Shown: positions 1 to 11,560 of the stretch, piece after piece | How positions within the stretch are numbered: position 1 is the stretch's first letter | Layout of the letters: each line of letters starts with the position of its first letter | Origin: a virus | Lineage: Duplodnaviria > Heunggongvirae > Uroviricota > Caudoviricetes | DNA: 11,560 nucleotides | Virus record (IMG/VR): IMGVR_UViG_2693429774_000009 | Coordinates: 1 to 11,560 of that record | Strand: one strand, 5' to 3' | Notes under the pieces: model-generated | The model's database searches: none | Seen by the model: only the letters and a program-made list of their open reading frames with translations | What the model was told of the DNA's origin: nothing | Made by a program: the position numbers and the translations under genes

Positions 1-280
1 TTCAAACCACTGAAAAAGAATAGGCGTTTTTTCATCAATGACCTTTAACTCATATTCCTTTCCGGCAAAAGAAACCGTTTGACAGGGTGAACTCTGCACT
101 ATATTTGCTGAGTTATGGAAAGTTGTCCTTATCGGTGAAAGCATTCGTCGTCCTGTTTATCCATATTTTCTTCACAACTAACTCTTTAATCTATTAATTA
201 TATTGGCATACTCAACCACAAAACCTCCAGCAGTTTTGCCATCTTTGCTTTCCTAACAAACATCACCATGACATGACAAC

Positions 281-306
281 AAAAACCGGAGCCGGACTCC
301 GGTTTT
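281..306. terminator. Possible bidirectional rho-independent terminator (stem CCGGAG/CTCCGG, loop CCGGA, A-run 5' and T-run 3')
   Basis: Perfect 6-bp GC-rich inverted repeat at 286-291/297-302 flanked by AAAAA (281-285) and TTTT (303-306). Confidence 0.35.
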
Positions 307-354
307 GTGAAGCTGTCGGGTTACTTCATCCCGCCAATATTTTCCCACGTCCCG

Positions 355-561
<207 letters not shown>

Positions 562-664: not shown

Positions 665-1081
665 TTATTTTAAGCACTGCGTCCTGATGTATTCCTGCAG
701 GTAGTTAACCTGCGCGGTTATCTTGTCGATTCCACCTCGGAGACGGTAATAATTGAGTTCAGCATCTGCTGTAAGTCCTGGGCTTTCTCCATCGCCCATG
801 CTGCTGGCTCCGGTCGTTGACTTTGCACAGGTGGCGGAGACTTGCAGGCGCTTACGCCCAGCAGAAACATCAGCACGGAGACTTTCGATAGTCGCATTAG
901 CATCAGCAAGCTCCTTTGTGTATCTGGCGTCGAGTTCTGCTACATCACGTTGACGCTTCTGCATGTCAGCGATGATGGATGTGGCTTTGTCGCGCTGGTC
1001 TTTGTAGGCGATGGCGTTATCACGGTAATGATTAACAGCCCATGACAGGCAGAGGATGATGCAAATAACCAGAGCGGAGAT
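665..1081 (-). pseudogene. Rz: Rz i-spanin, 5'-truncated (no start codon; in-frame stop at 1094-1096)
   Basis: Minus-strand frame [32 protein letters not shown]...[22 protein letters not shown]... matches lambda Rz from residue about 8 onward; homology to lambda ends at about 1081 and no ATG precedes it. ORF-track entry 665..964 is the internal-Met part. Confidence 0.75.
718..909 (-). CDS. Rz1: Rz1-like o-spanin lipoprotein embedded in the +1 frame of Rz
   Basis: 63-aa [38 protein letters not shown]...: signal peptide, lipobox V-S-A-C, proline-rich mature part, fully nested inside Rz as in lambda. Confidence 0.6.
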
Positions 1082-1151
1082 AGAGGAACAGAGTTAAAAA
1101 GCCGGAAGCGGAATCAAATCACAGGATGACCATCTGCCAGTGGCAGGTCAT

Positions 1152-1178
1152 AAAAAAAAGGCTGCGCAATGCGCAGCC
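1152..1178 (-). terminator. Rho-independent terminator for minus-strand transcripts leaving the cargo cassette
   Basis: + strand AAAAAAAA (1152-1159) then GGCTGCGC (1160-1167), loop AAT, GCGCAGCC (1171-1178); on the minus strand this is an 8-bp GC stem followed by a U-run. Confidence 0.5.
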
Positions 1179-1607
1179 AGAACTCACAAGGAAAATGATA
1201 AAAGGAATAACACTAGTGATGTACGCATGGCGCCTCCCGCTAAGTTCTGCAATGATCAAACAGAACTCGCTACGTGCCCTTAAAACTCGATCATTTAGCC
1301 CCTCCAAGGAGGATTCACCATGCGGTTGATTTTTTAATAAACAGTAAACAAAAAAGTCAAGAATTATTCATTCTGTTCTTTCATCATCGGCCACAGCAAT
1401 ACCACAATGCCGCAGACCAGAGCGCCATCAGTCAGTACCAACATTATCCTGCTGGTGAAATCCATCATCACCATCACTAAAAGCAGGATCACAACAGCAA
1501 GCAGACACAGTTTATAAAACAATGTTCAGAAAACGCATTCAGCATGCCTAAGGTTCTATTCCTACGAATAGCCAACTTGCAACTTAAAATATTATTTATG
1601 CAGCCAA

Positions 1608-2366
1608 TTAAATTCTGGTCCTTACAATATCAACCTGAAGATTCTTATATTGTGCTGATTGATAAATGACAAACCTTTTACTACCTGCATTGAAAGAAGT
1701 AGACAAAACCAGACAATTATCATAACGAGCAAGAACATAATACCAACCATCATTATAATTAATCATTTCATATTCTTTCTTAAACTGTGGTTTGTAATAT
1801 CCTGTCAGAAATGAAAAAAGCCAAAAATATGCCACAAAAGCAATCATCACAATCTCAAAAAAATGTTTTTTTATAAATGGCTTATCATAGAAGCATGATA
1901 CCGATAAAAATCGCCCATAAGATCTTATCGAAATTGTAACCGCCAGCGCAATCGCTGCTGACAGTAGCAAAAGAGGTACCTGAATCTTCTGTCTCAATAT
2001 AGAAAACTCAATAATTGCCGGCACAAACAATAATTCCACAGCAAAATAAAGGCGAAATACATTTAGCTCTTGCATAGAATGTTTTCTTTTCACTGCGAAA
2101 AAGAATACAACACCAATACCCCAACCGATAAGAAATATAGCAATGACGATAACTGCAAAAAATAAACTTCTGGCAACATCATCAACACCTGCACCTACAA
2201 TCCACCATGGGAAGCCGTAGTAAAAAGAAGTACCCCATCCATAGAAATAAGCACTCCCCCATCCAAGGCATCCCATGTAGGCAATAAAAAGTGAAGAACT
2301 CCTGAGCAGCGCACCATCCTTCATAACCACCCCAATACAAGATGATAACATTGGCTTACAACTCAT
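1608..2366 (-). CDS. Hypothetical polytopic inner-membrane protein (about 5 predicted TM helices, aromatic-rich, about 55-aa soluble C-terminal tail); late-operon cargo
   Basis: 252-aa ORF, AT-rich relative to flanking phage genes; hydrophobic segments e.g. SLFFAVIVIAIFLIGWGIGVVFFFAV, VPLLLLSAAIALAVTISI, FEIVMIAFVAYFWLFSFLTGYY; located directly downstream of Q and the pR'-like promoter where lambda has S/R. Start may be the internal Met at 2324 (GGGGTGG RBS). No family recognised. Confidence 0.6.
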   Translation of the reverse strand: MSCKPMLSSCIGVVMKDGALLRSSSLFIAYMGCLGWGSAYFYGWGTSFYYGFPWWIVGAGVDDVARSLFFAVIVIAIFLIGWGIGVVFFFAVKRKHSMQELNVFRLYFAVELLFVPAIIEFSILRQKIQVPLLLLSAAIALAVTISIRSYGRFLSVSCFYDKPFIKKHFFEIVMIAFVAYFWLFSFLTGYYKPQFKKEYEMINYNDGWYYVLARYDNCLVLSTSFNAGSKRFVIYQSAQYKNLQVDIVRTRI

Positions 2367-2532
2367 AACAAAAGCAATTCAATGCCGTCAAGAGGTTACA
2401 GGCTAAAAAAACTCTATTACATAGCAGCCAGCATGTTTACCGTACAAGTACAACTCAGGGCATAAAAACTACTCGGCGGCAGGTTATTGAGACTCATCAA
2501 TGACATGTAAAAAACGCCCATTATTGGTGTCA

Positions 2533-2561
2533 AGTTTCCCCAAAGTTATTCAAAAAGTCAA
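2533..2561 (-). promoter_or_regulatory. pR'-like late promoter (Q-utilisation region) reading leftward into the cargo cassette
   Basis: Minus strand reads TTGACTTTTTGAATAACTTTGGGGAAACTTGACACC, closely resembling lambda pR' TTGACTTATTGAATAAAATTGGGTAAATTTGACTC; -35 TTGACT at 2556-2561, -10 homologue 2533-2538. Homology to lambda is lost a few tens of bp downstream. Confidence 0.45.
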
Positions 2562-2603
2562 TATTATGCCGTTAATATGTTGCCATCCGTGGCAATCATG
2601 GCG

Positions 2604-3227
2604 CTAACGTGTGATCGCATTCAAAATGTTGTCTGCGATTGACTCTTCCTTGTGGCATTGCACAACCAGAGCGTCATACAGCGGCTTAACAGTGCGTGAC
2701 CAGGTGGGTTGGGTAAGGTTTGGGATTAGCATCGTCACAGCGCGATATGCGGCGCTTGCTGGCATTCTTGAATAACCGACGCCTTTACATCTTCCGCACT
2801 CTTTCTCAGCAACTCTCCCCCACAGCTCTGTTTTGGCTATATCAACCGCACGGCCTGTACCGTGGCAATCTCTGCATCTTGCGCCCGGCGTAGCGGCACT
2901 ACGGCAATAATCCGCATAAGCGAATGTTGCGAGCACTTGCAGTACCTTTGCCTTAGTATTTCCTTCAAGCTTTGCCACGCCACGGTATTTCCCCGATACC
3001 TTGTGTGCAAATTGCATCAGATAGTTGATAGCCTTTTGTTTGTCGTTCTGGCTGAGTTCGTGCTTACCACAGAATACAGCCATTCCGAATCCGGCTTGTG
3101 ATTGCGCCATCCCCATAGCAGCCATCACATCAGTACCGGAAAGAGAGTCAGAAGCCGTGGCCCGTGGTGAGTCGCTCATCATCGGGCTTTTTGGCGAATG
3201 AAATTTAGCTATGCTTTCGAGTCTCAT
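2604..3227 (-). CDS. Q: Late-gene antiterminator Q (lambda-type, 207 aa)
   Basis: [94 protein letters not shown]... is essentially lambda Q including the Cys-rich zinc-binding region. Confidence 0.95.
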
Positions 3228-3586
3228 GCGCCTTCTCCCTGTACCTGAATCAATGTGAGGTTTCCGCAGAACACTGCGCCAGTATCGATATACATCTGGT
3301 TGGCAAATTTGAGTGGTTTCACTGCTGGCGTATGACCAAAGATGAACGTGTCCGCGCCTTTGATTTCTTTCACGATCCCGTCTTGTGAGTTGCTGATTCG
3401 TTCGCGGTTCCAGATTACCTGCTGATGATCAACTGGCTTTCCAAACTCGTATTTATCACAAGGATAGCAATCCCCCAATTTGAGGGATGTTTTATCCCTC
3501 GTTTTAGGGGATTTTCCCTCGTTTTGAGGGATACACCATTCTGAGATGTTTTTATTTGGTCCAAACATGCCGCCTTGCTGCTTGAT
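3224..3586 (-). pseudogene. In-frame deletion fusion: internal fragment of replication initiator O (ori iteron segment) joined to the C-terminal half of a lambda-type Ser/Thr protein phosphatase (orf221/PP-lambda)
   Basis: Minus-strand frame [42 protein letters not shown] (lambda O, iteron-encoded) continues directly into [78 protein letters not shown] (metallophosphatase C-terminus); ends 4 nt into Q start as in lambda. P, ren and nin genes are absent. Confidence 0.7.
3471..3532. repeat. ori-lambda iterons (three O-binding repeats; fourth iteron and the AT-rich region deleted)
   Basis: Three tandem copies of the reverse-complemented lambda iteron: TCCCCCAATTTGAGGGA (3471-3487), ATCCCTCGTTTTAGGGGAT (3494-3512), TCCCTCGTTTTGAGGGAT (3515-3532); deletion junction falls in the fourth iteron (TATCC at about 3462-3466). 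Confidence 0.8.
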
Positions 3587-3751
3587 AAGAGGGATTGGAT
3601 TCCAAAGTTCTCAATGCTGCTTGCTGTTCTTGAATGGGGTGTCGTCGACGACGACATGGCTCGATTGGCACGACAAGTTGCTTCGATTCTCACCAATAAA
3701 AAACGCCCGGCGGCAACCGAGCGTTCTGAACAAATCCAGATGGAATTCTGA
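3587..3751 (+). pseudogene. cII: cII 3' fragment (residues about 44-97) on the inverted segment
   Basis: + strand translation [54 protein letters not shown]-stop matches the lambda CII C-terminus. Confidence 0.8.
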
Positions 3752-3783
3752 GGTTATTACTGGAACTATCAACAGGAGTCATT

Positions 3784-4077
3784 ATGACAAATACAGCAAA
3801 AATACTCAACTTCGGCAGAGGTAACTTTGCCGGACAGGAGCGTAATGTGGCAGATCTCGATGATGGTTACGCCAGACTATCAAATATGCTGCTTGAGGCT
3901 TATTCAGGCGCAGATCTGACCAAGCGACAGTTTAAAGTGCTGCTTGCCATTCTGCGTAGAACCTATGGGTGGAATAAACCAATGGACAGAATCACCGATT
4001 CTCAACTTAGCGAGATTACAAAGTTACCTGTCAAACGGTGCAATGAAGCCAAGTTAGAACTCGTCAGAATGAATATT
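3784..4077 (+). pseudogene. O: O 5' fragment (N-terminal 98 codons of replication initiator O) on the inverted segment
   Basis: MTNTAKILNFGRGNFAGQERNVADLDDGYARLSNMLLEAYSGADLTKRQFKVLLAILRRTYGWNKPMDRITDSQLSEITKLPVKRCNEAKLELVRMNI matches the lambda O N-terminus with its RBS AGGAGTCATTATG; homology stops at 4077. Confidence 0.8.
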
Positions 4078-4206
4078 CCACCTGCTGATCTGCGACTTAT
4101 CAACTCCCACAGCTTCCGCTGTCTTCTCAGTTCCAAGCATTGCGATTTTGTTAAGCAACGCACTCTCGATTCGTAGAGCCTCGTTGCGTTTGTTTGCACG
4201 AACCAT
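4078..4206 (-). pseudogene. cII: cII 5' fragment (first 43 codons) with native RBS
   Basis: Minus strand ATG at 4204-4206 preceded by GGAAATACTTACAT; MVRANKRNEALRIESALLNKIAMLGTEKTAEAVGVDKSQISRW then diverges at the inversion junction and stops after 7 more codons. Confidence 0.8.
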
Positions 4207-4285
4207 ATGTAAGTATTTCCTTAGATAACAATTGATTGAATGTATGCAAATAAATGCATACACCATAGGTGTGGTTTATTTTGAT

Positions 4286-4317
4286 GCCCTTTTTCAGGGC
4301 TGGGATGTGTAAGAGCG
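4286..4317 (-). promoter_or_regulatory. nutR (boxA CGCTCTTAC and boxB GCCCTGAAAAAGGGC) between cro and cII
   Basis: + strand shows reverse complements GCCCTTTTTCAGGGC (4286-4300) and GTAAGAGCG (4309-4317), matching lambda nutR boxB and boxA. Confidence 0.6.
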
Positions 4318-4325
4318 GGAATGTC

Positions 4326-5678
<1,353 letters not shown>

Positions 5679-5728
5679 TCCCCACCTCAATCTCGATAAC
5701 AAAAAAACAAACTATTTTCCGTTTAAAA

Positions 5729-5796
5729 ACAATGGAGTTTGTTTTTCACGCCCCTTTTTACAATATCTCTTGTTTACAACATACAATCTTCCTTGT
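5729..5796. promoter_or_regulatory. Left operator OL1-OL3 (434 type) with pL reading rightward toward N
   Basis: ACAATGGAGTTTGT (5729-5742), ACAATATCTCTTGT (5760-5773), ACAATCTTCCTTGT (5783-5796), all ACAA-N6-TTGT; possible -35 TTTACA at 5773-5778. Confidence 0.7.
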
Positions 5797-5842
5797 AATT
5801 TTAAGCCATCAGCAGGACGCACTGACCACCATTGAAGGTGAG

Positions 5843-5872
5843 GCTCTTAAAAATTAAGCCCTGAAGAAGGGC
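5843..5872 (+). promoter_or_regulatory. nutL (boxA-like GCTCTTAA and boxB GCCCTGAAGAAGGGC)
   Basis: GGCTCTTAAAAATTAAGCCCTGAAGAAGGGC matches lambda nutL boxA/boxB, located in the N leader. Confidence 0.65.
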
Positions 5873-6029
5873 AGCATTCAAAGCAGAAGGCTTTGGTGTG
5901 TGTGATACGAAACGAAGCATTGGCCGGAAGTGCGAATCCGGATTAGCTGCCAATGTGCCATTGCGGGGTGTTTTCGTTCAGGACTACGACTCCCACACAC
6001 AACCAAAGCTAACTGACAGGAGAATCCAG

Positions 6030-6353
6030 ATGGATGCACAAACACGCCGCCGCGAACGTCGCGCAGAGAAACAGGCTCAATGGAAAGCAGCAAATCCCCT
6101 GTTGGTTGGGGTAAGCGCTAAACCAGTTAACCGCCCTATTCTCTCGCTGAATCGCAAACCGAAATCACGAGTAGAAAGCGCACTGAATCCGATAGACCTT
6201 ACGGTGCTGGCTGAATACCACGAACAGATTGAAAGCAACCTGCAACGTATTGAGCGCAAGAATCATCGAGTTTGGTATAGCAAGCCAGGTGAGTTCGGTA
6301 TAACTTGTCAAGGAAGACAAAAGGTTAAAGGGGAATCCATTCCATTGGCATGA
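6030..6353 (+). CDS. N: Antitermination protein N (lambda type, 107 aa)
   Basis: MDAQTRRRERRAEKQAQWKAANPLLVGVSAKPVNRPILSLNRKPKSRVESALNPIDLTVLAEYH... including the arginine-rich boxB-binding motif; ORF-track call 5898.. starts at a spurious upstream Met. Confidence 0.9.
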   Translation: MDAQTRRRERRAEKQAQWKAANPLLVGVSAKPVNRPILSLNRKPKSRVESALNPIDLTVLAEYHEQIESNLQRIERKNHRVWYSKPGEFGITCQGRQKVKGESIPLA

Positions 6354-7231
6354 GGTACGTAATGAAGAAGATTGATTACAAGTCCATACCAAAACCAATA
6401 GACTCAGCATCAGAGCGAAAAAAACACAAAAAAGAGGCTGAAAAATTAGCAAATTATATCAGTTTTATTAGAAACAATGCTCACGGCGATGGCGACAAGA
6501 AGTTGCTTTCAGATGCTCGGACCCAAGCGTTCGGTATACTTCGTAAGCAGATGCAATATCGTCTTCATCCTGGCTACATAATTGAAATTCGCCCTACTGA
6601 AAGACAATTGTTCTTATTAAACTCTGTCTTTGACTTTGTAAACGTAGTTGGAGATCTTATCGACAGGTCTGTAGATAAGGATCCTGATACAAATAGTTTT
6701 CTTCTAACAAATAAAGAATACTTATATGGTAAATTCGGTATAAACGGATGGCAAAAATATGTACGCTTCTTACGTGCATTCGTTGATGCGTATAAAAATT
6801 CCGACATGATTTATACATATTTGCCTGGTGGTGATAATTGTACGCTTTCGGCAGACAATAGAATATTCATACCTGTACTTGGTCTTGGGCTGATTAATGC
6901 AGTAAATGAAAAAGATGTTATAATTGTTAAGCAGTGGCGAAAATATGAGGGATATAGATATCTGCCATGCTTTGATATATTAAAAATACAGAATAAATTC
7001 TATGTAAAAATTAAATATAAAGAAGATATTTTCTTCCTCAGAAAAAACATAGATCTTTTACAAGAACTTTCTGGTACAATAGATGTCATCTTAGGTTCTA
7101 GGTTTATAAAAGAACTGAAAGAAAGCAGGTCTTTCTCTCGTGTAGAGATAAGCGAGTCAGAGTTATGGGGTATATCAAATAATCCTGTAAACCACGCTCA
7201 CCAACGAAACCCAAACAAAAAGTGGTCATAA
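6350..7231 (+). CDS. Hypothetical protein (293 aa; likely true start at 6362 giving 289 aa), AT-rich cargo gene replacing the lambda ral/sieB region
   Basis: Long ORF with ATG overlapping N stop (ATGA) and a second ATG at 6362 preceded by GAGG; markedly lower GC than flanking N and ea10; Lys/Ile/Asn/Tyr-rich, no TM segments, no motif recognised. Confidence 0.6.
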   Translation: MRYVMKKIDYKSIPKPIDSASERKKHKKEAEKLANYISFIRNNAHGDGDKKLLSDARTQAFGILRKQMQYRLHPGYIIEIRPTERQLFLLNSVFDFVNVVGDLIDRSVDKDPDTNSFLLTNKEYLYGKFGINGWQKYVRFLRAFVDAYKNSDMIYTYLPGGDNCTLSADNRIFIPVLGLGLINAVNEKDVIIVKQWRKYEGYRYLPCFDILKIQNKFYVKIKYKEDIFFLRKNIDLLQELSGTIDVILGSRFIKELKESRSFSRVEISESELWGISNNPVNHAHQRNPNKKWS

Positions 7232-7373
7232 CCCGCTCAGGCGGATTTCATTTTCACGCAAACAACAGAATAAACACAGCGCTGTGTATTCATTCCAACG
7301 AGTGAATACACGGAGCAATGTCGCTCGTAACTAAACAGGAGCCGACTTGTTCTGATTATTGGAAATCTTCTTT

Positions 7374-7400
7374 GCCCTCCAAGATGAGGGCGATTTTTTA
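7374..7400 (+). terminator. Putative rho-independent terminator between the cargo ORF and ea10
   Basis: GCCCTC (7374-7379) loop CAAGAT, GAGGGC (7386-7391) followed by GATTTTTTA. Confidence 0.35.
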
Positions 7401-7419
7401 TCTGTGAGGATATGAACAG

Positions 7420-7788
7420 ATGTCAAACATCAAAAAATACATCATTGATTACGACTGGAAAGCATCAATAGAAATTGAAATCGACCATGACGTAATGACA
7501 GAGGAAAAACTTCACCAGATTAATAATTTCTGGTCAGACTCTGAATACCGACTCAATAAACACGGCTCTGTATTAAATGCTGTATTAATCATGCTGGCGC
7601 AACATGCTCTGCTTATAGCAATTTCAAGCGACTTAAATGCATATGGTGTTGTGTGTGAGTTCGACTGGAATGATGGAAATGGTCAGGAAGGATGGCCTCC
7701 AATGGATGGTAGTGAAGGAATAAGAATTACCGATATCGATACATCAGGAATATTTGATTCAGATGATATGACTATCAAGGCCGCCTGA
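7420..7788 (+). CDS. ea10: Ea10-like protein (lambda early gene, 122 aa)
   Basis: MSNIKKYIIDYDWKASIEIEIDHDVMTEEKLHQINNFWSDSEYRLNKHGS... recalled as lambda Ea10; position upstream of cIII matches lambda. Confidence 0.8.
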   Translation: MSNIKKYIIDYDWKASIEIEIDHDVMTEEKLHQINNFWSDSEYRLNKHGSVLNAVLIMLAQHALLIAISSDLNAYGVVCEFDWNDGNGQEGWPPMDGSEGIRITDIDTSGIFDSDDMTIKAA

Positions 7789-7860
7789 GCGCGGCGTTAC
7801 CGCATACCAATTACGCTTCACTCGAGGCGTTTTTCGTTATGTATAAATAAGGAGCACACC

Positions 7861-8025
7861 ATGCAATATGCCATTGCAGGGTGGCCTGTTGCTGGCTGCC
7901 CTTCCGAATCTTTACTTGAACGAATCACCCGTAAATTACGTGACGGATGGAAACGCCTTATCGACATACTTAATCAGCCAGGAGTCCCAAAAAATGGATC
8001 AAACAATTATGGCTATCCAGACTAA
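7861..8025 (+). CDS. cIII: CIII, FtsH inhibitor stabilising CII (54 aa; below ORF-track size cutoff)
   Basis: ATG at 7861 after AAGGAG; translation [54 protein letters not shown]-stop matches lambda CIII. Confidence 0.85.
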   Translation: MQYAIAGWPVAGCPSESLLERITRKLRDGWKRLIDILNQPGVPKNGSNNYGYPD

Positions 8026-8137
8026 ATTCACTATCGCCACTTTTATTGGCGATGAAAAGATGTTTCGTGAGGCCGTCGACGCTTATAAAAAATGGATATT
8101 AATACTGAAACTGAGATCAAGCAAAAGCATTCACTAA
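7994..8137 (+). CDS. kil: Kil (host killing / FtsZ inhibitor, 47 aa)
   Basis: Internal Met of ORF 7868..8137: [47 protein letters not shown] matches lambda Kil; overlaps cIII 3' end as in lambda. Confidence 0.8.
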
Positions 8138-8508
8138 CCCCCTTTCCTGTTTTCCTAATCAGCCCGGCATTTCGCGGGCGATATTTTCACAGCTATTTCA
8201 GGAGTTCGGCCATGAACGCTTATTACATTCAGGATCGTCTTGAGGCTCAGAGCTGGGCGCGTCACTACCAGCAGATAGCCCGTGAAGAGAAAGAGGCAGA
8301 ACTGGCAGACGACATGGAAAAAGGCCTGCCCCAGCACCTGTTTGAATCGCTATGCATCGGTCATTTGCAACGCCACGGGGCCAGCAAAAAAGCCATTACC
8401 CGTGCGTTTGATGACGATGTTGAGTTTCAGGAGCGCATGGCAGAACACATCCGGTACATGGTTGAAACCATTGCTCACCATCAGGTTGATATTGATTCAG
8501 AGGTATAA
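8092..8508 (+). CDS. gam: Gam, RecBCD inhibitor (138-aa long form; short form would start at 8212)
   Basis: ...[60 protein letters not shown]...[10 protein letters not shown] matches lambda Gam. Confidence 0.9.
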
Positions 8509-8513
8509 AACGG

Positions 8514-9299
8514 ATGAGTACAGCACTCGCAACGCTGGCAGGGAAGCTGGCTGAACGTGTCGGCATGGATTCTGTCGACCCACAGGAACTGATCACCACT
8601 CTTCGCCAGACGGCATTTAAAGGCGATGCCAGCGATGCGCAGTTCATCGCATTGTTGATCGTCGCCAACCAGTACGGCCTTAATCCGTGGACGAAAGAAA
8701 TTTACGCCTTCCCTGATAAGCAGAACGGCATCGTTCCGGTGGTGGGCGTTGATGGCTGGTCCCGCATCATCAATGAAAACCAGCAGTTTGATGGCATGGA
8801 CTTTGAGCAGGACAATGAATCCTGTACATGCCGGATTTACCGCAAGGACCGTAATCATCCGATCTGCGTTACCGAATGGATGGATGAATGCCGCCGCGAA
8901 CCATTCAAAACCCGCGAAGGCAGAGAAATCACGGGGCCGTGGCAGTCGCATCCTAAACGGATGTTACGGCATAAAGCTATGATTCAGTGTGCCCGTCTGG
9001 CCTTCGGATTTGCTGGTATCTATGACAAGGATGAAGCCGAGCGCATTGTCGAAAATACTGCATACACTGCAGAACGCCAGCCGGAACGCGACATCACTCC
9101 GGTTAACGATGAAACCATGCAGGAGATTAACACTCTGCTAATCGCCCTGGATAAAACATGGGATGACGACTTATTGCCGCTCTGTTCCCAGATATTTCGC
9201 CGCGACATTCGCGCATCGTCAGAACTGACACAGGCCGAAGCAGTGAAAGCTCTTGGATTCCTGAAACAGAAAGCCACTGAGCAGAAGGTGGCAGCATGA
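8514..9299 (+). CDS. bet: Bet (Red-beta single-strand annealing protein, 261 aa)
   Basis: [72 protein letters not shown]... matches lambda Bet. Confidence 0.95.
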
Positions 9300-9976
9300 C
9301 ACCGGACATTATCCTGCAGCGTACCGGGATCGACGTGAGAGCTGTCGAACAGGGGGATGATGCGTGGCACAAATTACGGCTCGGCGTCATCACAGCTTCA
9401 GAAGTTCATAACGTAATAGCAAAACCCCGCTCCGGAAAAAAGTGGCCTGACATGAAAATGTCCTACTTCCACACCCTGCTTGCTGAGGTTTGCACCGGTG
9501 TGGCTCCGGAAGTTAACGCTAAAGCGCTGGCCTGGGGAAAACAGTACGAGAACGACGCCAGAGCCCTGTTTGAGTTCACTTCCGGCGTGAATGTTACTGA
9601 ATCACCGATCATCTATCGCGACGAAAGTATGCGTACCGCCTGCTCTCCAGATGGTTTATGCAGTGACGGCAACGGCCTTGAACTGAAATGCCCGTTTACC
9701 TCCCGGGATTTCATGAAGTTCCGGCTCGGTGGTTTCGAGGCCATAAAGTCAGCTTACATGGCCCAGGTGCAGTACAGCATGTGGGTGACGCGAAAAGATG
9801 CCTGGTACTTTGCCAACTATGACCCGCGTATGAAGCGTGAAGGACTGCATTATGTCGTGGTTGAGCGGGATGAAAAGTACATGGCGGGTTTTGACGAGAT
9901 GGTGCCGGAGTTCATCGAAAAAATGGACGAGGCACTGGCTGAAATTGGTTTTGTATTTGGGGAGCAATGGCGATGA
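9296..9976 (+). CDS. exo: Lambda exonuclease (Red-alpha, 226 aa)
   Basis: [65 protein letters not shown]... matches lambda Exo with a few substitutions; 4-nt overlap with bet. Confidence 0.95.
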
Positions 9977-10155
9977 AGCATCCTCACGATAATATCCGGG
10001 TAGGTGCGATCACTTTCGTCTACTCCGTTACAAAGCGAGGCTGGGTATTTCCCGACCTTTCTGTTATCCAAAATCCACTGAAAGCCCAGCGGCTGGCTGA
10101 GGAGATAAATAATAAACGAGGGGCTGTATGCACAAAGCATCTCCTGTTGAGTTAA
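9967..10155 (+). CDS. Small hypothetical protein, lambda orf60a-like (62 aa)
   Basis: ORF overlapping exo stop (ATG...TGA coupling), [62 protein letters not shown]; recalled as the small ORF following exo in lambda, identity not verified. Confidence 0.55.
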
Positions 10156-10242
10156 GAACGAGCATTGAGATGGCACATATGGGCGCAGATAGCACATGCA
10201 GACGTAACCAATATTCGAATTGAAGAACTGAAAGAACACCAA

Positions 10243-10290: not shown

Positions 10291-10509
10291 ATGTACTTGA
10301 CACTTCAGGAGTGGAACGCACGCCAGCGACGCCCAAGAAGCCTTGAAACAGTTCGTCGATGGGTACGCGAGTGCAGGATATTCCCTCCTCCGGTTAAGGA
10401 TGGAAGAGAGTATCTGTTCCACGAATCAGCGGTAAAGGTTGACTTAAATCGACCAGTAACAGGTAGCCTTTTGAAGAGGATCAGAAATGGGAAGAAGGCG
10501 AAGTCATGA
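10291..10509 (+). CDS. xis: Excisionase Xis (72 aa)
   Basis: MYLTLQEWNARQRRPRSLETVRRWVRECRIFPPPVKDGREYLFHESAVKVDLNRPVTGSLLKRIRNGKKAKS matches lambda Xis; 23-nt overlap with int as in lambda. Confidence 0.93.
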   Translation: MYLTLQEWNARQRRPRSLETVRRWVRECRIFPPPVKDGREYLFHESAVKVDLNRPVTGSLLKRIRNGKKAKS

Positions 10510-11560
10510 GCGCCGGGATTTACCCCCTAACCTTTATATAAGAAACAATGGATATTACTGCTACAGGGACCCAAGGACGGGTAAAGAGTTTGGATTAGGC
10601 CGAGACAGGAGGATAGCAATCACTGAAGCAATACAGGCCAATATTGAGTTACTCTCAGACAGCGGACGCAAATCACTGATAGACAGAATTAAAGGCGGTG
10701 ACGCAATCACTCTTCATGTGTGGCTTGACCGATATGAAACAATCCTCACCGAAAGGGGGATCAGGCCGAAAACTCTACTCGACTACGCCAGCAAAATCAG
10801 GGCAATCCGAAGAAAATTGCCGGACAAACCGCTCACTGACATATCAACGAAAGAAGTGGCAGCAATGCTAAACACCTACGTAGCAGAAGGTAAAGCAGCT
10901 TCCGCAAAATTAATCAGGTCAACCCTTGTTGACGTTTTTCGTGAAGCAATAGCCGAGGGGCATGTGGCAACGAATCCGGTAACAGCAACCCGTACAGCAA
11001 AGTCAGAAGTAAGGCGCTCAAGGCTGACAGCTAATGAGTATGTCGAGATTTACCATGCAGCCGAACCTCTCCCTATCTGGCTAAGGCTGGCGATGGATTT
11101 GGCCGTCGTTACAGGGCAGAGAGTCGGCGATTTGTGCAGAATGAAATGGTCAGACATAAACGACAACCATCTTCACATTAAACAGAGTAAAACAGGGGCT
11201 AAACTCGCCATTCCGCTAACGCTAACGATTGACGCGCTCAATATCTCATTGGCTGATACACTACAGAAATGCAGGGAGGCCAGCAGCAGTGAAACTATAA
11301 TCGCATCAAAGCATCACGATCCGCTTTCCCCGAAAACAGTATCAAAGTATTTTACAAAGGCGAGAAATGCATCTGGCCTCTCATTTGATGGAAACCCGCC
11401 AACATTCCATGAACTGCGTAGCCTGTCAGCGAGGCTATACCGGAACCAGATTGGCGATAAGTTTGCTCAACGTCTTCTCGGGCATAAATCAGATTCAATG
11501 GCGGCGCGGTATAGGGACAGCCGTGGACGGGAATGGGACAAAATTGAAATCGACAAATGA
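10487..11560 (+). CDS. int: Tyrosine integrase Int (357 aa), lambda-family; stop codon is the last triplet of the window
   Basis: MGRRRSHERRDLPPNLYIRNNGYYCYRDPRTGKEFGLGRDRRIAITEAIQANIELL... N-terminal arm-binding domain identical to lambda Int; catalytic motifs (R...HELRSL...LLGH...Y) present; central region diverged from lambda Int. Confidence 0.95.
   Translation: MGRRRSHERRDLPPNLYIRNNGYYCYRDPRTGKEFGLGRDRRIAITEAIQANIELLSDSGRKSLIDRIKGGDAITLHVWLDRYETILTERGIRPKTLLDYASKIRAIRRKLPDKPLTDISTKEVAAMLNTYVAEGKAASAKLIRSTLVDVFREAIAEGHVATNPVTATRTAKSEVRRSRLTANEYVEIYHAAEPLPIWLRLAMDLAVVTGQRVGDLCRMKWSDINDNHLHIKQSKTGAKLAIPLTLTIDALNISLADTLQKCREASSSETIIASKHHDPLSPKTVSKYFTKARNASGLSFDGNPPTFHELRSLSARLYRNQIGDKFAQRLLGHKSDSMAARYRDSRGREWDKIEIDK

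Follow-up and report, generated by a model that had tools for sequence, protein, structure and literature searches.

A 491-bp inversion that divides cII and O in a decayed lambda/434-type prophage remnant of Escherichia coli: probably a fixed, effectively neutral product of illegitimate recombination

Introduction

The closest described counterpart of the locus reported here is the cI-cro-cII-oop-O region of phages lambda and 434, with which it shares both gene content and sequence. Its cI and cro genes are of the 434 type, and the N, cIII, kil, gam, bet, exo, xis, int and Q genes of the same remnant are lambda-like. In lambda, 434 and their other relatives the block discussed below is collinear with its surroundings, whereas here it is flipped and, in addition, the C-terminus of O, the P gene and a part of ori are deleted.

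A second group for comparison consists of cryptic lambdoid remnants, such as DLP12, Rac and Qin of E. coli K-12 and the effector-carrying remnants of EPEC and EHEC strains, which are likewise grounded prophages. As in the cryptic remnants, int and xis, the immunity genes, the Red genes and Q have been kept here, while the genes for replication, lysis and the virion have been deleted; as in the effector-carrying ones, cargo effector genes adjoin the prophage in its relatives. Cryptic prophages normally decay by inactivating rearrangements with little or no homology at the junctions. Still, a small, perfectly conservative and repeat-free inversion differs from the usual lesions of such remnants, being less common than a deletion or an IS insertion.

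Programmed inversions offer a third comparison. In the Hin/hix, Gin/gix, Cin/cix and Pin/pix systems, as well as in the FimB/E-controlled fimS element, a short segment is inverted without sequence loss, as it is here. The 2-bp overlap at the breakpoints recalls the crossovers of the serine invertase systems, but an overlap of this size also falls within chance. On the other hand, and unlike all of these systems, the present locus shows no inverted-repeat crossover sites, no likeness to hix or gix, no adjacent invertase gene, no second orientation and no conservation. As far as its sequence tells, it is the lambda/434 cII-oop-O module and would fall outside any family of invertible segments; the inversion itself belongs with the ordinary inactivating rearrangements of cryptic lambdoid prophages.

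We describe here this inversion as found in an 11,560-nucleotide stretch of viral DNA (IMG/VR record IMGVR_UViG_2693429774_000009), referred to below as the window. We consider it highly probable (roughly 0.85) that it is a genuine, fixed inversion of 491 bp, present in one isolate, which was produced by a single illegitimate recombination event in a decayed lambda/434-type remnant and is effectively neutral.

Gene order of the prophage remnant

The lambdoid prophage in the window runs in reverse to the conventional orientation of lambda (Table 1). The torS gene adjoins the integration site, int and xis are intact, and some cargo and lysis fragments are present to the left of Q. Holin and endolysin genes (S, R) and all virion and structural genes are absent, as judged from the ORFs of the window and from annotated relatives.

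Table 1. Positions of the features discussed in the text (window coordinates).
Feature	Position	Strand	Remarks	Basis
Inverted block	3587..4077		holds cII 3' end, oop/t_oop, Po-like promoter and O codons 1-98	alignment to L001/L003 and lambda
Collinear junction sequences (breakpoint at slash)			GCAGGTGG/AAGAGGG and GAATATT/ATCAAGC	
cII 5' fragment, codons 1-43	4078..4206	-	reads on into 7 foreign codons, stop at 4054; Phage_CII 1-44/91	
cII 3' fragment, codons 44-97 and stop	3587..3751	+	on the strand opposite to the cII 5' fragment	
O 5' fragment, codons 1-98	3784..4077	+	on the opposite strand; within chimeric ORF 3784-4176	
Remainder of the O'-NinI' fusion	3224..3586	-	O codons 99 to ~139, ori iterons 1-3 and part of iteron 4, then the C-terminal part of NinI	
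Junction of the older deletion	3462..3466		5-bp overlap	lambda comparison
oop terminator (t_oop), predicted	3700..3727	-	stem-loop and T-run; now in the same direction as the pR/cro/cII' transcript	
Po-like sigma-70 promoter, putative	3781..3809	-	TTGAGT-17-CATAAT with extended TG; now co-directional with pR	
Plus-strand genes		+	int (10487-11560), xis, exo, bet, gam, kil, cIII, N, 434-type cI (4645-5277)	ORF list and annotated records
Minus-strand genes		-	434-type cro, cII, O-derived ORF, Q (2604-3227)	ORF list and annotated records
Lambda cIII thermoregulator RNA	7848-7906	+	intact, upstream of and within cIII	Rfam RF01804, 88.5 bits

The block is inverted without loss or gain of a base

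An earlier note, made from the letters of the window only, had proposed an exact 491-bp inversion at 3587-4077 that splits both cII and O, and had suggested pinning its breakpoints by alignment to lambda and 434. As a reference we used the closest complete genome, that of E. coli Z1323HEC0011 (NZ_CP148385.1, locus L001), relative to which the window shows only 6 SNPs. In BLAST searches, positions 1081-3588 and 4076-10179 of the window matched the minus strand of this locus, while the block 3587-4077 matched its plus strand with 491/491 identity (E = 0), and a 100% match of 491 bp in the flipped orientation is far above chance. The identical flip was seen in comparison to strain E2 (L003; again 491/491 in reversed orientation), to phage 434 (block 99.8% identical) and to lambda (block 98% identical, equivalent to lambda 38489-38979). 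The block is thus inverted relative to every related phage and prophage compared.

The subject coordinates on L001 abut, with the block at 8624-9114 and the flanks ending at 8625 and 9113, and as they do so exactly, zero bases were lost or gained at either junction. Because the block begins with AA and ends with TT, both breakpoints are ambiguous by 2 bp and the alignments overlap by two bases. The breakpoints (8623/8624 and 9114/9115 in L001) lie 491 bp apart, between codons 43 and 44 of cII and between codons 98 and 99 of O. The proposed inversion was therefore confirmed to the base and needed no correction, the alignments to lambda and 434 included.

cII and O are broken in the window and rejoin in frame

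Re-inversion of exactly 3587-4077 gives a CII protein of 97 aa, which covers the whole of the Pfam family PF05269 (Phage_CII, 1-91/91, 163 bits, E 1.7e-48) and which agrees in length and in encoding DNA with the CDS annotated as WP_000251073.1 in Z1323HEC0011. It also gives a continuous O'-NinI' ORF of 218 aa, which at its N-terminus matches PF04492, the iteron-binding domain of O (Phage_rep_O, 2-95/95, 123 bits, E 6.4e-36). The identification of the two genes as cII and O in the earlier note is borne out by these matches, and we found the same residues at the rejoined junctions as it had given, ...SRW/KRDW... for cII and ...RMNI/IKQQGG... for O.

In the window as it is, CII is reduced to 43 native residues followed by 7 foreign ones and covers only positions 1-44 of the 91 of Phage_CII. 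Codons 1-98 of O continue into a chimeric ORF of 130 aa on the plus strand, in which only positions 2-78 of the 95 of Phage_rep_O are matched. An exact protein look-up of the truncated 50-aa CII' returned zero records, probably because no gene was called there.

In GenBank, fragments created by the inversion are annotated as proteins, namely CTW89132.1 ("replication protein o", 3784-4176, plus strand) and CTW89116.1 ("Serine/threonine-protein phosphatase", 3224-3568, minus strand). Both of these, as well as the neighbouring short ORFs, are artefacts of broken genes and not genes. Annotators may benefit from knowing that CTW89132.1 and the short ORFs adjoining it reflect the inversion.

Two assemblies carry both junctions

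The window is identical (100%) to positions 2-11561 of the GenBank contig CYDV01000007.1 (GCA_001284905.2). It starts one base inside this contig of 187.8 kb, which itself starts within the prophage remnant, at tail-fibre fragments (window 1-540). An independent assembly, made by Logan directly from the SRA run ERR178178, contains a contig of 7,124 bp which is 100% identical to positions 1115-8238 of the window and crosses both junctions unbroken, with neither a branch nor a stop at either of them. The run may have supplied the reads for GCA_001284905, or it may stem from a second isolate; the evidence that it provides is at the level of assemblies and would be compatible with an opposite orientation at low frequency. 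An exact look-up of the 130-aa chimeric ORF found it on record in the same two places, GCA_001284905.2 and the ERR178178 Logan assembly.

As the nearest complete genome is collinear, we also suspected a planted or synthetic edit, which is ruled out by the 100% identity to CYDV01000007.1 and by the junctions in the Logan assembly.

It might be argued that the source DNA is in fact collinear and that the inversion arose during assembly or from chimeric reads. The sequence comes from a draft assembly of short reads, the window sits at the beginning of a contig that is broken off within the prophage, two further private junctions (at ~1081 and ~10178) are outside the coverage of the Logan contig, and the arrangement is absent from all other public sequence searched. 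Yet de Bruijn contigs hold only those k-mers that are present in reads, and a misjoin needs repeats at least k long, whereas the two junctions share 2 bp and have no flanking inverted repeat. Since the junctions have only these 2 bp in common and the k-mers come from reads, reads carrying both junctions must exist. With both junctions present at 100% identity in the GenBank record as well as in an unbranched Logan contig, an artefact of assembly or library, which the earlier note had offered as one option, seems to us very improbable.

The inverted arrangement is a singleton

When a query across both junctions was run against 5,426 complete E. coli genomes, the matches never exceeded the 491-bp block, and none of 50,697 phage records covered the junctions. 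The exact strings of both junctions were found neither in IMG/VR nor in JGI metagenomes, and the left junction, the one searched there, was not found in GTDB species representatives; as a positive control, the collinear junction was present in 53 IMG/VR contigs. The chimeric ORF CTW89132.1 forms a singleton cluster among ~15 billion proteins. The inverted arrangement is thus private to one isolate or read set and, because every relative is collinear, it is the derived state.

A probably older deletion accounts for the loss of P and of parts of O and ori

The remnant also bears an older deletion of 4.5 kb (lambda ~39105-43646), which reaches from ori iteron 4 to ninI and joins O at codon ~139 to the C-terminal portion of NinI, a phosphatase. 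Lost through it are the C-terminal domain of O, the genes P, ren and ninB-ninH, and the AT-rich portion of ori. The identical O-ninI junction occurs in just one of the 5,426 complete E. coli genomes, that of Z1323HEC0011, where the deletion is present, cII is intact and the order is collinear. By parsimony, judging from this collinear sister genome, we infer that the O-ninI deletion predates the inversion.

The complete lambda ori consists of four iterons and an AT-rich region. Such an ori, the P gene and the C-terminal domain of O that interacts with P, all of them expected of a functional initiator system, are lacking from the window and from the collinear sister genome alike. The earlier note had held that the inversion inactivates both the regulator of lysogeny establishment and the replication initiator. 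The loss of cII stands, but not that of O, which had already been truncated and fused by the older deletion. As O, P and ori had been destroyed before, the inversion newly kills only cII, and the loss of cII is all that it adds. Taken together, the gene content is that of a heavily decayed lambda/434-type prophage remnant, which is predicted to be incapable of replication, lysis and packaging.

The inversion consequently carries little biological weight, being one further scar, in a single isolate, on a remnant already without replication, lysis and virion genes.

No repeat, invertase site or att core accounts for the junctions

The only sequence common to the two breakpoints is the 2-bp AA/TT, and in a simulation on this sequence an overlap of at least 2 bp arose in 16% of random breakpoint pairs; this microhomology is at chance level. 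No inverted repeats spanning both breakpoints were found. The nearest perfect one is of 9 nt (TGCTGCTTG/CAAGCAGCA, L001 8652-8660 / 9117-9125), and its arms are off the breakpoints, one of them being set back 28 nt into the block and the other lying 2 nt beyond it. When compared with the 26-bp crossover consensus of the Hin/Gin family known from the literature, the junctions score 4/22 and 6/22, with a background of 5.75 +/- 2.07, and the two junction sites match each other at 7/32 positions. The lambda att core TTTATAC is absent within 60 bp of either breakpoint, and the two breakpoints share 2 bp, against the 7-bp overlap region expected for recombination by Int at secondary att sites. Neither the window nor the 12 kb of contig that were read contains an ORF for an invertase.

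The earlier note had reported neither an inverted repeat nor microhomology at the junctions. This is right as regards any meaningful repeat, but the 2-bp overlap, at chance level, does exist. Its further statement that neither recombination between repeats nor an obvious invertase site explains the inversion agrees with our repeat, invertase-site and att-core tests, all of which were negative. Neither canonical site-specific recombination nor homologous exchange between repeats is supported.

The reading that we prefer is that the DNA broke once at two points separated by 491 bp, in cII between codons 43 and 44 and in O between codons 98 and 99, and was rejoined without the help of repeats. 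The exchange was conservative, with no base lost or gained, and its only new genetic effect is the shortening of CII to its 43 native residues. With O, P and ori destroyed earlier and no genes left for lysis and the virion, such a lesion would be effectively neutral and could have been kept by drift. The term "illegitimate recombination" is used here by exclusion, and not on the grounds of a positive signature. Error-prone end joining usually loses bases, and a base-perfect reciprocal exchange is thus slightly unusual for it; such an exchange would fit a conservative reaction at non-canonical sites, like that of a topoisomerase or a recombinase. For catalogues of illegitimate recombination in E. 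coli, this is a clean case of a base-perfect, repeat-free small inversion.

One may ask whether a recombinase acted at cryptic pseudo-sites instead, either a serine invertase of the Pin/Gin/Hin type supplied by another prophage or the remnant's own Int, in a one-off event or as a reversible switch of cII and of the pR transcript. Serine recombinases make 2-bp staggered cuts and require a 2-bp overlap at the crossover, and the present exchange is perfectly conservative with exactly such an AA/TT overlap; int and xis are still intact, and the flip turns t_oop into the pR transcript, where it could in principle gate expression of Q. We nevertheless regard this as very unlikely. The overlap is one that arises by chance at the frequency given above, the 26-mers at the junctions do not rise above background when scored against the literature consensus, the junctions do not resemble each other and no att core is present. 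The opposite orientation is universal whereas the inverted one is a singleton, which is not what a conserved invertible architecture would look like; the single unbranched contig gives, at the level of assembly, no sign of mixed orientation; and the module that would be regulated is already defunct. In its most specific form, in which a serine invertase from another prophage used pseudo-sites sharing the AA core and low-frequency flipping may still bring the oop terminator into the pR-to-Q transcript and take it out again, the idea is, in our opinion, even slightly more remote.

Of the three possibilities left side by side by the earlier note, a fixed inactivating lesion is thus the favoured one, with both junctions in two assemblies, a singleton arrangement and no recombinase sites. 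A reversible switch is disfavoured on the same two latter counts, and no second orientation was found in the searches.

Two further private junctions and a possible common origin

Two other differences from the sister genome were observed in the window. At ~1081/1082, 1,772 bp of the sister genome are missing (a SASA-family carbohydrate esterase gene and an rrrD fragment), which puts an Rz-like lysis gene directly beside the DUF3927/TfpB cargo region. None of the complete E. coli genomes searched has this junction. In strain E2 yet another, third arrangement is seen here, for which reason the junction may be a mosaic boundary. At ~10177-10179, between the DUF1317 gene (orf60a-like) and xis, a private deletion of 1,900 bp with a 3-bp junction overlap takes out the DUF1382 gene, a TraR/DksA-like gene and three hypothetical genes, all of which are present in Z1323HEC0011 and in E2; its junction was found neither in complete E. 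coli genomes nor in GTDB representatives. The Logan contig spans neither of the two junctions.

Within 9 kb the window shows three structural changes of its own, whose junctions overlap by only 2-3 bp, against only 6 SNPs to the sister genome. This could make one think of a single complex, replication-based event with template switching (MMBIR-like), for example during abortive induction, in which the inversion and both private deletions (of ~1.8 kb at ~1081 and of 1.9 kb at ~10178) would have been made at once. At the junctions of an inversion, events of this kind usually leave behind a duplication, a deletion or a templated insertion, whereas no base was gained or lost here. Kilobases of unaltered sequence separate the three changes, separate steps of decay in a dead prophage account for them just as well, and the polarity of the change at ~1081 is ambiguous, given the third arrangement in E2. 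A common origin of the three therefore strikes us as very improbable, and a separate illegitimate recombination event remains our reading of the inversion.

Predicted consequences of the flip

According to the annotation of phage 434 and lambda, oop is antisense to cII. In the window, oop, Po and the terminator have been flipped into the direction of pR, so that the antisense pairing of oop with cII would be abolished. An Rfam scan of the window matched no oop family, its sole match being the cIII thermoregulator. The flip places a strong terminator-like hairpin, a predicted intrinsic terminator, between cII' and Q in the pR transcript. By analogy with lambda, the N protein, whose gene is present, would be expected to override t_oop by antitermination. 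In a remnant incapable of replication, lysis and packaging, these effects of the flip are most likely selectively irrelevant.

Cargo genes and host

Two cargo ORFs of the window occupy positions at which "morons" are found in lambda, and both are kept in related prophages. One of them (6350-7231, plus strand), between N and the DUF2528 gene, encodes a 289/293-aa protein without a Pfam match. The other (1608-2366, minus strand), downstream of Q, encodes a 247/252-aa membrane protein of the TfpB / STM1630 family (PF27470). Genes for type III effectors, namely nleB2, nleC (partial), nleH and cif, are found in the adjoining DNA of relatives (L001 13935-17701). Because these genes adjoin the prophage in its relatives, the host is probably an EPEC/EHEC-like E. 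coli strain.
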